A stretch of DNA of 63,992 bases, counting the filler, from Basidiobolus ranarum (taxonomy: Eukaryota), in the NCBI GenBank assembly GCA_040143965.1. It is 4 parts of 4 records of this genome, joined end to end, with 100 filler letters (N's around TTAATTAATTAA, not from the genome) between each part and the next. Parts side by side here need not be neighbours in the genome. Positions count along the whole stretch, not along the records: positions 16,282 to 32,450 come from JASJQH010007227.1; 3 more parts are not named here. One strand, given 5' to 3'. Position numbers and translations under genes: made by a program. The notes beneath the pieces are model-generated. The model saw only the letters and a list, made by a program, of their open reading frames with translations, was not told the DNA's origin and did no database searches. Positions 18,302-21,872 of the stretch are shown here, in pieces (the stretch's first letter is position 1; each line of letters opens with the position of its first letter).

Positions 18302-18499
18302 ATGGCCTTCGCTCTCACTCGTCTTCAATATCTCAAACCAGTTGCCACTGTTAATCTCAGCACTTACACAATGACTGGCCTCGGCTCCGCTTCCATCGCC
18401 TGGTTTATATCCACCGCAATCAACAAAAGCAGATCAGAACAGCCTTCACCCACAAAACCAACACTCTCACAAGACATGGAGTCCTACGTTTGGTGGTAG
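18302..18499 (+). CDS. YVWW-family microprotein 1 (65 aa)
   Basis: MAFALTRLQYLKPVATVNLSTYTMTGLGSASIAWFISTAINKSRSEQPSPTKPTLSQDMESYVWW*; TATA upstream, AATAAA downstream (~18576); C-terminus shared with neighbours. Confidence 0.8.
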   Translation: MAFALTRLQYLKPVATVNLSTYTMTGLGSASIAWFISTAINKSRSEQPSPTKPTLSQDMESYVWW

Positions 18500-18893
18500 A
18501 GTGATATGTTTGGTGGTAGACTCTTTACTACATCCTATAGAATAATGTACCTGTATTATAAGTTCAACTGTAACAATAAATATATTGCATTCAACGATAA
18601 AACTAGTTTCTGTCTGAAGTAAAATGAACCATGTGCTTAGTAGCTATTGGTTGGCTAGAATCTAACTTCTGTCATGTGCAATCAATTTGTTAAAATCAAG
18701 CTTCTGTCATGTTCTCAACACGTGGAACTTAGCCTAACCAAATGGCAAACAAAACTCATCGAATCACAACATATTTAATGTCTAGTATATTGCATTTTAT
18801 TGACCATAGATTGAGTAGTAGTTAAGATTAGCTTATGTACAGATGGTTTGACAGATGATTACATTAAAATACGCCGTGGTATGGATGATTGAG

Positions 18894-19046
18894 TTACCAC
18901 CAAACATAGGACCCAAGGTCTTTGGAGAGGCTACTTCTGGACAATTGCGACTGTTCCTGAGGTTTAAGCTGAAGCCATTTGAATCCGAGTAATTCGCGGA
19001 AACCTTTGAAGGCAGTTTGAGAATCGTTGATAGAGTTAGAGTTCAT
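18894..19046 (-). CDS. YVWW-family microprotein 2 (50 aa; not in the ORF track)
   Basis: Hand translation: MNSNSINDSQTAFKGFRELLGFKWLQLKPQEQSQLSRSSLSKDLGSYVWW*; TATAAA on the minus strand at about 19094-19099. Confidence 0.8.
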   Translation of the reverse strand: MNSNSINDSQTAFKGFRELLGFKWLQLKPQEQSQLSRSSLSKDLGSYVWW

Positions 19047-20772
19047 GGCAAGATAATTCAGTTTGAATAATCCGTAGAGTCATACAATCTGAATTTATAT
19101 TGGGTTTCTTTTTTTCTGCCATTCTTTTCTTTTCGGTAACAAATCTTTTCCATTCCGATTATCCCCGCGATAATCCCATATTTATTGGTGGACTAATGAT
19201 GTGGCTATTTGGTAGGCGGCTAGGATAACCATTGGCCAACCCGAGGATGAACGTAGCTAGATCGAACAGTGATCGTTAACCTATTAATATTTCTTCACTT
19301 CCCCGAAATACCCCAAGTTTCCCAAAGCAATGATAAAAAGACCATCTAGATCCTGACATCTCTAGACTCACCTAGTACCACGGCGAATAGTCATTATACT
19401 TAACCAATAGACCTGTCCCATAGTAACAATGACCTCATTTCTCAACTGGTTTTGCAGTGTACGACTGCTTTGTGATGTTTAGATATCAATTTCATATATC
19501 TAAAGTCACATTTACTCTCTTCTTACTCTATAGCCTTTAACTATGCTTCGAACGATAAATGAAATACATCAACTCAAGCAATCGAAGTTACCATAGGTGA
19601 AGTCGGAATGTATATCTAAATCCGACATCATTATATATTTTCGCAGTAACATTCTCATTATTTGCCATGTGAACCGTTGAATTTGATTCTCCACATTTAG
19701 TTTTGTATCACCTGTCGGATGATAATATAGCTTAATAAAAGAATCGAACAACCCACCTGTCACGTCATTTAATAATGCGCGTTCAAATCGAGCTTCATTT
19801 TCTGGCCTCGGAGCTATCCGGGGTGGGGTTCTTTTTGAGCAAGTATTCAGTTGCTGTTCTAGGATTATCAGGAAAGATTCGGATGTATCTCATCCCAAAA
19901 AATCCAATCATATATTCCAGAGTCCAGTCTACGATTTATTTGAATGAATCAGTCTAACAAAGGTAGGGTACTTTAAGTAACAGTTAAATTTAATAGTCAT
20001 TGAGGATAAACAACTTTAACATAGTATCTTCGTTCATATATCTACATCATAGTTAAGTCTGGATGAGTTCAATTTCAACTTGAATTAATACTGAAAAGTG
20101 CTTCTTACCCATTCCATCCTAGACCTTTTCTTTGTGAGAGGCGTTGAGTAAACCAGGCAGGATACAAGAGTGAGAAGCCAACTATGACTGGCACTTGTAC
20201 GGTCTGTAAATAAAAGTATTAAAGTGTGTTAATTTTATAGGTAGAATGTACCAAATTACTTACTGATAACTGAGCGAACACTTTTTGAAATTGCATACTT
20301 CTGCTGTACATTATGTCTGAAGTTTGCGATCATTCTGTCTAATCCCGCCTTAAATATGATTTATAGCGTAAAAAGACAGTTCCCGTTCATCCATTTTAGT
20401 TCATTCCAACACCAAGTAGGTTTATCAGAGATATTACTACCAACACAGACACCCTATCATTCAATCTGTCTATGAGTTTTGATTGAAAGAGTAAAAGATA
20501 ATATGCAGGATTCCGACAGAAGATATCCAAGAATCCATAGAATCTTCGGGATCAGTTTAAATGAAATGGTTGGTAAAATCAACGACAACGAAATCGATTA
20601 TTAAGAAAATCTTTCTATTCTTTAATGTGAACTATCTCCAATGAAGGGTGTTCAAGTGGTGAAATATGCGAAAGAAGATTGGAGACCTCATTTCGATAAA
20701 GATCGAGGTCTTCAATCGAGCTCTTTTCAATATATAAGCGACTCGACTGAGTTGAGGTTTTTCCATCAAATC

Positions 20773-20955
20773 ATGATTTCTGTCACTATTCGTGCTAAGG
20801 CGTTAAACACTTTACCTGCATTATCACTATCCAGTCTGGGTATCTTTGGGGTTGGATGGTTCGGCTCCACGGTATTGACACAGCAACTCAAAGACTCCAA
20901 GGCACATTCCAAAGCATCTAACTCTCAAGATCTGGGAACTTATGTATGGTGGTGA
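20773..20955 (+). CDS. YVWW-family microprotein 3 (60 aa)
   Basis: MISVTIRAKALNTLPALSLSSLGIFGVGWFGSTVLTQQLKDSKAHSKASNSQDLGTYVWW*; TATATAAG at 20731-20738 favours ATG 20773 over the ORF-track start at 20641. Confidence 0.8.
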   Translation: MISVTIRAKALNTLPALSLSSLGIFGVGWFGSTVLTQQLKDSKAHSKASNSQDLGTYVWW

Positions 20956-21650
20956 TCAGTACTTCTCCATCTTCAGAGTAGATAACCTATAACCTATAAT
21001 CTGCGCCTTGACACACTGGAGATTTGTTTATATCTATGTAATAAGTTAGCAACTAGAGTAATATCCTGGAACACTTGACACCATAATAAAGCAAGAGTTT
21101 TCAACACCAGCCAAACCCGGTGACTGTTTAAGATTTCAGTGTTAGATCGAATTTTAAGTTAGTTAAGGTAATACCAAGATGATCAATTTCCGCTAGGTAC
21201 ACAATGATAAACATCAATATCATATGGTGTATTGGTAATAACTGTCTTACCAAAAATAGCAAAATTATTAGACATACTTACTACGCCTAACTTCACATAT
21301 GTACACTCCGCCCACCTTACCCCCATCTTTATACCTTACTCATCACAAAAGCTCAAATATTCAAGAATTACAAGTGAATCAATGATTTGTTTGAATTTAT
21401 TAGGAGTAATCGATAGATGATCGCCTCCGTCTATACATGATGGAATTAGCGGTTAAGAAAATAGAGGGGAGAAGATTAAATGGAACAGCTTGCTATGAAG
21501 GGATAATACTGACATCAATAAAATACCAACAAGTGGAATTTCTATAGGAGAAACAGGTAGAAGGTAGTTTTACAAAAATGCGAAGATAGAGGTTAGGTCG
21601 TTGCTACTCAATTTAAGAGGTGGTCTCCCAAAGTGTGCTATTGCATCGGA

Positions 21651-21872
21651 TTATAAACATACGTAGTCGCCAGGTGAAAGAGAGAGTATCATGGAAGGAT
21701 GTGGCCCACTACTCGTGTTCTCTTTGGACTTGTTTGGAGTGGGTGGAAGCACATGCTGTGTATTCGTGTTGAGAATTGCGATACTGCTGGCACCCAAAGT
21801 TAACCCGAAAAAGGCTATTGAAGGGAATGGCATAGCTCTTGGGACTGAAGTGCGAAGTGGAACTGCAAGCAT
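21651..21872 (-). CDS. Probable divergent fourth microprotein (73 aa), ends LSPGDYVCL
   Basis: MLAVPLRTSVPRAMPFPSIAFFGLTLGASSIAILNT...SLSPGDYVCL*. Same layout (basic N-terminus, GLxLGASSIA hydrophobic stretch, polar linker, GxYV tail); TATATAAG on the minus strand at about 21986-21993. Confidence 0.6.
   Translation of the reverse strand: MLAVPLRTSVPRAMPFPSIAFFGLTLGASSIAILNTNTQHVLPPTPNKSKENTSSGPHPSMILSLSPGDYVCL

Follow-up and report, generated by a model that had tools for sequence, protein, structure and literature searches.

A putative family of microproteins with a conserved C-terminal YVWW tail, encoded by a cluster of short genes in Basidiobolus ranarum

Do several very short open reading frames (ORFs) that resemble each other mainly in their last residues form a family of genes, and, if so, what might the shared ending be for? 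The question is raised by a DNA stretch of 63,992 nucleotides (nt), filler included, recorded as Basidiobolus ranarum and referred to here as the window. Between 18.3 and 21.9 kb it holds four short intronless ATG-to-stop ORFs in the strand order +, −, +, −. ORF1 (18302-18499, + strand) codes for a microprotein of 65 residues that ends in LSQDMESYVWW and is closed by TAG. ORF2 (19046-18894, − strand), a member of 50 residues with neither leader nor hydrophobic segment, ends in LSKDLGSYVWW followed by TAA. The end of ORF3 (20773-20955, + strand; 60 residues from an inner ATG) is NSQDLGTYVWW followed by TGA. We refer to these three as WW-tailed. Their neighbor of like build, ORF4 (21872-21651, − strand; 73 residues), terminates in SLSPGDYVCL followed by TAA. 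An earlier note on this DNA had described the location of the cluster, the alternating strands, the tails and the three different stops (TAG, TAA and TGA), and the sequence bears out each of these points. NCBI and UniRef list proteins for all four ORFs.

The tail occurs in the window far more often than expected by chance. The degenerate DNA pattern for Y-V-W-W-stop, TAYGTNTGGTGGTRR, has four matches against 0.01 expected, and none of 100 shuffles reached four. In the six-frame translation of the 64-kb window ‘WW-stop’ is found at four places only, three of which are the ends of ORF1, ORF2 and ORF3. The fourth is not a gene end. It belongs to a tandem duplicate, 20 nt long, of the DNA for the ORF1 tail (18499-18518, + strand; 85% identity), which lies out of frame directly 3′ of the ORF1 stop and encodes a free-standing YVWW-stop at 18505-18519. 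Its 14-nt core is 100% complementary to the ORF2 tail, i.e. identical to that tail on the opposite strand. This copy is probably a relic of slippage or conversion.

Searches of 5.8 and 1.84 billion proteins brought the whole set to seven proteins, the four from the window and three from outside it, the latter all annotated as ‘hypothetical protein’. B. ranarum K7432_003458 (P0006; 64 residues) ends in LSQDLQSYVWW and is 66% identical to ORF1 (42 of 64 positions). B. meristosporus CBS 931.73 K493DRAFT_318766 (P0007; 66 residues) ends in MAKDLGTFVWW and shares 31 of 60 positions with ORF3. B. ranarum K7432_010775 (P0005; 73 residues), the closest relative of ORF4 (75% identity, 55/73; tail 11/11), has the same SLSPGDYVCL ending. 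The earlier note had made its case depend on homologs that keep YVWW before the stop in related genomes, and [YF]VWW-stop is indeed found outside the window, in one of the B. ranarum proteins and in that of B. meristosporus. These relatives place the window in Basidiobolus or close to it, so that the guess of an early-diverging fungus was correct. The chain end S/A-x-D-[LM]-x-[ST]-[YF]-V-W-W-stop is common to ORF1, ORF2, ORF3, P0006 and P0007, while ORF4 and P0005, both ending in GDYVCL, lack it. The family consensus derived from the sequences is [LN]-S-[QK]-D-[LM]-[GEQ]-[ST]-[YF]-V-W-W, which, as far as these sequences indicate, must end the chain.

Constraint on the tail is evident from how the copies differ. 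Over the last 11 sense codons of ORF1, ORF2 and ORF3 the variable sites are distributed among the first, second and third codon positions as 4, 2 and 7. The third base differs in seven of the nine tail codons that have synonymous alternatives, whereas Ser, Asp, Tyr and Val are unchanged. The only sharing among the ORFs at the DNA level is that of the tail itself (35 nt at 83% between ORF1 and ORF2). Since the third positions of the tails appear close to saturation, the duplication would be old and recent gene conversion is excluded on this evidence. Between subfamilies, the last 11 columns are 64% identical (56 of 88 comparisons), compared to 17% (59 of 351) for the body. Judged from these comparisons, selection acts on the peptide, with the strongest constraint on the last ∼11 residues and their C-terminal position. 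Thus, two propositions of the earlier note, that the tails differ by synonymous codons and that strongly diverged bodies accompany selection on the last ∼10 residues and their terminal position, are borne out.

It might be argued that the conserved 15–35 nt are a DNA or RNA element, such as a 3′-end signal or a relic of a repeat, and that the ORFs are annotation artifacts. The extra out-of-frame copy after the ORF1 stop, with a core identical to the ORF2 tail, would suit such an element, and ORFs of similar size occur frequently in the window (the background includes 42 with an ATG and 50–75 residues). However, the differences are concentrated at third codon positions, the 11 conserved residues are written with different codons, and all three stops are used. 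Moreover, the homologous frames of other Basidiobolus records are open and colinear, with 52–75% protein identity, and Rfam has no match at the locus. A codon-usage score trained on 2998 codons from the large ORFs of the window also ranks the annotated frame as the best of six in all four ORFs; the fractions of the 42 background ORFs that score at or above them are 0.05, 0.05, 0.12 and 0.17. In view of the evidence for selection on the peptide, we call the noncoding element the least likely of the rivals and give it very little weight. That the ORFs represent a real coding family is, in our estimate, highly probable.

Further support comes from promoter-like elements detected by a motif scan. 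ORF1 is preceded by CCAAT at 18177-18181 and TATAAA at 18243-18248 (18177-18248, + strand), and ORF3 by CCAAT at 20638-20642 and TATATA at 20731-20736 (20638-20736, + strand). On the − strand, TATAWA and CCAAT are located 53 and 142 nt upstream of the ORF2 start codon (19094-19188), and 121 and 162 nt upstream of that of ORF4 (21988-22034). Overall, TATAWA is present 42–121 nt and forward CCAAT 125–162 nt upstream of the ATG in all four ORFs, in line with the earlier suggestion that each of the three WW-tailed ORFs has a TATA box of its own; AWTAAA follows 76–250 nt past the stop, again in all four. The background frequencies per kb per strand are 1.6 for TATAWA, 1.8 for CCAAT and 1.3 for AWTAAA. 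As the intervals for these promoter and terminator motifs were picked after looking, we treat the motifs as supporting evidence only for the prediction that the ORFs are real, separately transcribed intronless genes.

The same elements bear on the start of ORF3. The public model begins at ATG 20641 and has 104 residues, but the family profile covers only residues 45–104 of it, and the first 44 residues (20641-20772) are without a homolog. In addition, the TATAWA at 20731 falls inside and the CCAAT at 20638 at the start of the long model. Therefore, the true start is most likely ATG 20773, and the public model starts too far upstream.

The extent of the family was explored at several levels of sensitivity. 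The ORF1 sequence alone retrieved only itself, and a profile of the four ORFs added one outside protein. An exhaustive HMMER search of 1.84 billion cluster representatives gave five proteins at E ≤ 0.001, each of 50–104 residues, and at this sensitivity no longer or fused form of the family. ORF1 and ORF4 are absent from the five; presumably P0006 and P0005 stand in for them as a result of clustering at 50% identity. The seven-sequence profile, run against 5.8 billion proteins, returned the same seven and nothing further among 103 candidates. Within the window, the family profile matches only the four ORFs among 2125 six-frame ORFs of at least 20 residues, without a fifth member. The five WW-tailed sequences produced 33 pattern matches in JGI metagenome contigs, none of which was confirmed, and no stretch in the prokaryote genome collection fits the tail pattern. 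A recent bacterial origin is therefore unsupported.

Comparison with characterized families was equally negative. None of the four ORFs exceeds a Pfam-A gathering cut-off (the best match is UNC-50 with E = 0.12 and 12.4 bits against a cut-off of 22.1). A profile search of PDB sequences gave a single match, pleckstrin-2 (E = 0.43), which we took as chance and dropped as a relative. ESM Atlas yielded no usable feature match for ORF1 or ORF4, and the structure neighbors of ORF4 found there were discarded as meaningless because the model has a predicted local distance difference test score (pLDDT) of only 0.39. Literature searches, judged by titles, returned no title about a peptide motif for the string YVWW and none of relevance for a C-terminal di-tryptophan motif. 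Rfam and tRNA scans revealed no family or tRNA at the locus; a sub-threshold Rfam match resembling a small nucleolar RNA lies at 17026-17104 (E = 0.36). The proposal that the family is undescribed thus stands, as neither Pfam, PDB nor the literature offers a characterized match. On the sequence evidence, this is an undescribed microprotein family, restricted to the genus Basidiobolus as far as databases show.

How far does the relationship extend beyond the tail? A profile of any one WW subfamily detects the remaining two among the 2125 window ORFs, with E-values from 7.7e-9 to 7.1e-4; ORF2, in particular, is found by the profiles of the other two subfamilies at 4.8e-4 and 9.1e-5. Most of this cross-subfamily signal is the tail, although the hydrophobic stretch described below ends in a second, small conserved block, L-G-x5-W-[FL]-x-S-T. 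Common descent of the bodies of the WW subfamilies is likely, yet unproven. Several results call for caution about a single family of this extent. With the last 11 columns removed, the profile of ORF1 and P0006 still ranks ORF3 as the first non-self match, but only at E = 0.056, and the reverse body-only search leaves ORF1 outside the top six. For ORF4 the difficulty is greater: the hhalign comparison of the ORF4 group with the WW group gave E = 0.18 over just four columns (G-x-Y-V), and ORF4 is absent from the matches of the WW profile at E ≤ 50. The statistics are also thin, with seven proteins in all. Should the window derive from B. ranarum, the two outside homologs of that species would be paralogs rather than orthologs.

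Accordingly, the status of ORF4 has to be put more modestly than in the earlier note, which had counted it as a fourth member; its homology to the WW-tailed proteins is not measurable at the level of sequence. What ties it to them is size, the type of N-terminus, a G-x-Y-V equally far from the stop, and its position in the cluster. From its sequence ORF4 is a conserved gene of similar build, and it is probably, though this is unproven, a divergent paralog of the WW members.

To characterize the part preceding the tail, we compared the build of the seven proteins. Six of them, ORF2 being the exception, have no acidic residue before position 41–51. The N-termini of these six are rich in Ser, Thr, Ala and Leu, and carry two Lys/Arg within the first 20 residues in five cases and one in P0006. 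Next, again in six of the seven, comes an uncharged Gly/Ser-rich stretch of 19 residues with a mean Kyte–Doolittle (KD) hydropathy of 1.05–1.81 and a summed Hessa value of +1.4 to +4.1 kcal/mol (both scales were entered by hand). By these values the stretch is too weak for a typical anchor in the endoplasmic reticulum (ER). A linker of ∼20 residues, rich in Lys, Ser, Pro and Gln, separates it from the tail. The AlphaFold2 (AF2) model of ORF1, based on a seven-row alignment, is of low confidence (mean pLDDT of 55); it has helices at residues 4–9, 16–46 (long) and 58–61 (short), with residues 47–57 disordered. The earlier note had read the N-termini of ORF1, ORF3 and ORF4 as a presequence followed by a membrane anchor. 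An acid-free basic start and an ensuing hydrophobic Gly/Ser stretch are indeed there by composition; the term ‘membrane anchor’ is insecure, the stretch being weak.

ORF2 departs from this layout. Its best 19-residue KD average is −0.03, acidic residues appear from position 8 onward, and the former hydrophobic stretch is charged and amphipathic. The frame is open across the whole homologous region and the tail is intact, while none of the other frames upstream encodes the lost leader or hydrophobic segment. The retention of the tail without leader and anchor speaks for a function independent of them. ORF2 also contains the run W-L-Q-L-K-P (18960-18977, − strand), known from the mature alpha-factor of S. 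cerevisiae. Since the Trp of this run aligns with the conserved Trp of the family, we take the resemblance to be chance.

Taken together, these features suggest a possible mode of action. The acid-free leader with its Arg/Lys and abundant Ser/Thr, followed by the uncharged hydrophobic stretch, would act as a mitochondrial bipartite (stop-transfer) signal. Such a signal, according to PMC12895372, consists of a cleavable targeting sequence and then a hydrophobic sorting domain. The protein would then be held in the inner membrane or released into the intermembrane space, where the basic, flexible linker of ∼20 residues would display the aromatic tail with its free carboxylate. The tail, in turn, would dock, as a short motif, on a conserved partner; ORF2, having lost leader and anchor and kept the tail, would be a case of the tail working alone. 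The weak hydrophobic stretch seems to fit mitochondrial sorting better than ER insertion, and the invariant Asp, the small/hydroxyl pair and Tyr/Phe-Val-Trp-Trp with a free carboxylate look like a short linear docking motif. Our confidence in the parts of this scheme differs. The tail is probably the functional determinant. The mitochondrial route is considerably less certain, and we would sooner doubt than assert it; docking of the tail on a protein partner is a possibility to which we attach slightly less credence still. The proposed explanation as a whole, comprising the family, its targeting and anchoring and the docking tail, is tentative, and we regard it as somewhat short of an even bet. 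Two observations tell against the targeting part in particular: the presequence reading is one of composition only, with modest hydrophobic moments (0.30–0.56), and the hydrophobic stretch has positive charge on either side, so that both topologies are conceivable.

The closest known counterparts are similarly instructive in what they share and what they do not. Mitochondrial stop-transfer proteins and small single-pass inner-membrane subunits have the acid-free, basic, hydroxyl-rich N-terminus followed by an uncharged hydrophobic sorting stretch (PMC12895372). In contrast to the WW family, they are not known to have a conserved aromatic C-terminal tail; the WW family, for its part, is similar to no solved chain or Pfam family, and the likeness is one of composition alone. 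Sarcolipin-type micropeptides resemble the family in being single-helix microproteins with a highly conserved aromatic tail at the C-terminus, RSYQY, on which their activity strongly depends (10.1101/696070). However, the sarcolipin tail follows the helix directly, whereas ∼20 residues of linker intervene in the WW family; there is no homology, the lineages differ, and a pump partner is known on the sarcolipin side only. The streptococcal ComS/XIP pheromones share a tiny precursor with a conserved, active C-terminal end that contains WW (PMC5131902). They are bacterial, and the WW family shows no similarity to their leader. No ComR-like or transporter gene was found among the scanned ORFs near the cluster, nor any match to the tail pattern in prokaryote genomes. 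Besides, WW is not known to form the last two residues in ComS/XIP. Both sarcolipin and ComS are thus best viewed as would-be functional analogies and not as homologs.

Ribosomally synthesized and post-translationally modified peptides (RiPPs) of fungi, i.e. the dikaritin/ustiloxin, MSDIN and borosin types, also arise from small precursor genes that evolve fast but conserve a short core. The dikaritin/ustiloxin type is characterized by repeated cores between dibasic sites and by DUF3328/tyrosinase neighbors, MSDIN by a conserved leader and a prolyl oligopeptidase, and borosins by fusion to a methyltransferase. These features are not seen in the WW family, which has one tail per protein and no conserved KR or RR in the aligned linker.

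The N-terminal part can also be interpreted as a long signal peptide or anchor of secretory precursors, with the YVWW end displayed or released as a signaling or antimicrobial, possibly RiPP-like, peptide. A positive N-region followed by a hydrophobic stretch suits a signal sequence too, and a gene cluster with fast-changing bodies would be typical of secreted peptide families. The conserved part is at the very end of the protein, as in the ComS/XIP pheromones, which keep WW (PMC5131902). On the other hand, the n-region is long (13–21 residues), the h-region is Gly/Ser-rich and weak by the Hessa scale (the sums given above), the aligned linker has no conserved dibasic processing site, and ORF2 keeps the tail yet is devoid of any signal. 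The prokaryote genome collection yielded no relatives, and no tailoring enzyme was found among 39 scanned neighboring ORFs of at least 60 residues or eight large ORFs. All in all, we consider secretory precursors unlikely, albeit the most credible of the rivals. A related alternative, for which we see clearly less room, is that the precursors are cleaved behind the hydrophobic stretch, releasing a peptide of ∼25 residues with a free YVWW as a signal or ligand in the mitochondrial intermembrane space or outside the cell; ORF2 would then be a leaderless cytosolic decoy or regulator. If this is true, zoopagomycete fungi would have their first known family of genetically encoded peptide signals.

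Instead of binding a protein, YVWW might dip into the membrane–water interface and thereby position or bend the protein, acting as an interfacial staple. Trp and Tyr favor membrane interfaces, and the short helix predicted by AF2 at residues 58–61, at low confidence, would be compatible with such a role. The conserved aromatic C-terminal tail of sarcolipin governs function and, according to 10.1101/696070, may position the helix in the membrane. Yet a lipid-directed anchor would need neither the invariant Asp nor the S-x-D-[LM]-x-[ST] lead-in, both kept despite saturated third bases, and ORF2 has no transmembrane part to position. Such a staple is therefore rather unlikely, in our view a little more so than secretion. 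Finally, a motif that always abuts the stop, so that its free C-terminal position is required, might be a C-terminal degron or quality-control tag, read by a ubiquitin ligase or protease on the proteins or on their mis-targeted copies. An ORF with weak F-box (E = 0.005) and SMI1/KNR4 (SUKH; E = 0.004) matches does lie 1.7 kb from ORF4 (23550-24557, − strand; 336 residues, 349 from stop to stop), although adjacency is weak evidence in eukaryotes. Complex prediction for this 336-residue protein and residues 34–65 of ORF1 scored 0.00 in both runs, with controls that did not fold, and weighs neither for nor against the idea. We know of no C-degron of the YVWW-tail form, and it is hard to explain why selection would maintain a family that conserves only its own destruction signal; we consider this idea highly improbable. 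Several other motifs were considered and dropped: an Atg8-interacting motif (mismatch at the last position), CaaX or Rab prenylation of the VCL end of ORF4 (Cys is wrongly placed), an acidic-aromatic ribosomal stalk tail (no Pfam signal), as well as a glycosylphosphatidylinositol signal and a type 1 peroxisomal targeting signal.

The surroundings of the cluster are those of a eukaryotic genome. The GC content of the window is 0.34–0.41, and its large ORFs match a GH9 cellulase, two O-fucosyltransferases, an MFS transporter and a GATA factor. Stop-to-stop ORFs of 60 residues or more number 66 between 7.9 and 32.4 kb. The neighbor scan covered 39 of them, the overlapping antisense or shadow ORFs and the family members having been set aside. 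The only Pfam matches among them were EBP/EXPERA, a GATA finger and the F-box with SMI1/KNR4. No P450, radical-SAM, methyltransferase, DUF3328, tyrosinase or peptidase was detected in these 39 (8.4–30.1 kb) or in the eight large ORFs, and by these scans 8.4–33.8 kb contains no RiPP-type enzyme; exons shorter than 60 residues would have escaped notice.

A number of other features of the window were recorded. At 16727-17287 (− strand) there is a frame of 187 residues rich in Gln, Gly, His, Asn and Arg, built of units of ∼28–31 residues and without a Pfam match; the repeats in the underlying DNA have lengths of 84, 93 and 177 nt. Two divergent paralogous ORFs of ∼120 residues (24998-25363, − strand, and 25755-26126, + strand), likewise without a Pfam match, have signal-peptide-like starts and a Cys-containing block, K-[IV]-[KR]-A-L...VVC, repeated twice; from their sequences they may be a pair of small secreted proteins. 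The GH9 cellulase ORF (30687-32351, + strand; E = 5e-136) is intronless, and the two ORFs of the GDP-fucose O-fucosyltransferase family are located at 45556-46896 (+ strand) and 47725-48732 (− strand). Plants and animals, more than fungi, are the familiar sources of both families. Paired runs of 44 N split by 12 bases occur at 16182-16281, 32451-32550 and 48689-48788; their regular spacing of ∼16.2 kb suggests that they are masks of technical origin and not gaps in the assembly. In the protein collection the family is assigned to a piece of 16169 bases, the same length as the interval between two of the pairs.

Microproteins confined to one genus tend to be written off as artifacts of annotation. 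In the present case, the sequences alone point to selection on a free C-terminal tail of eleven residues, seen across old paralogs as well as in other Basidiobolus records. By the sequence evidence the family is new, but its general kind is familiar: a small protein, predicted to be anchored, with a terminal motif. To fungal genomicists such a well-supported orphan family would be interesting but not surprising; its interest would grow greatly with the discovery of a partner or of a processed peptide. The tail, being a small and defined peptide, can be synthesized and used to fish for that partner. If the mitochondrial interpretation is true, the family would represent a lineage-specific addition to the organelle in an early-diverging, gut-dwelling fungus; if the secreted one is, it would represent a new fungal peptide signal.

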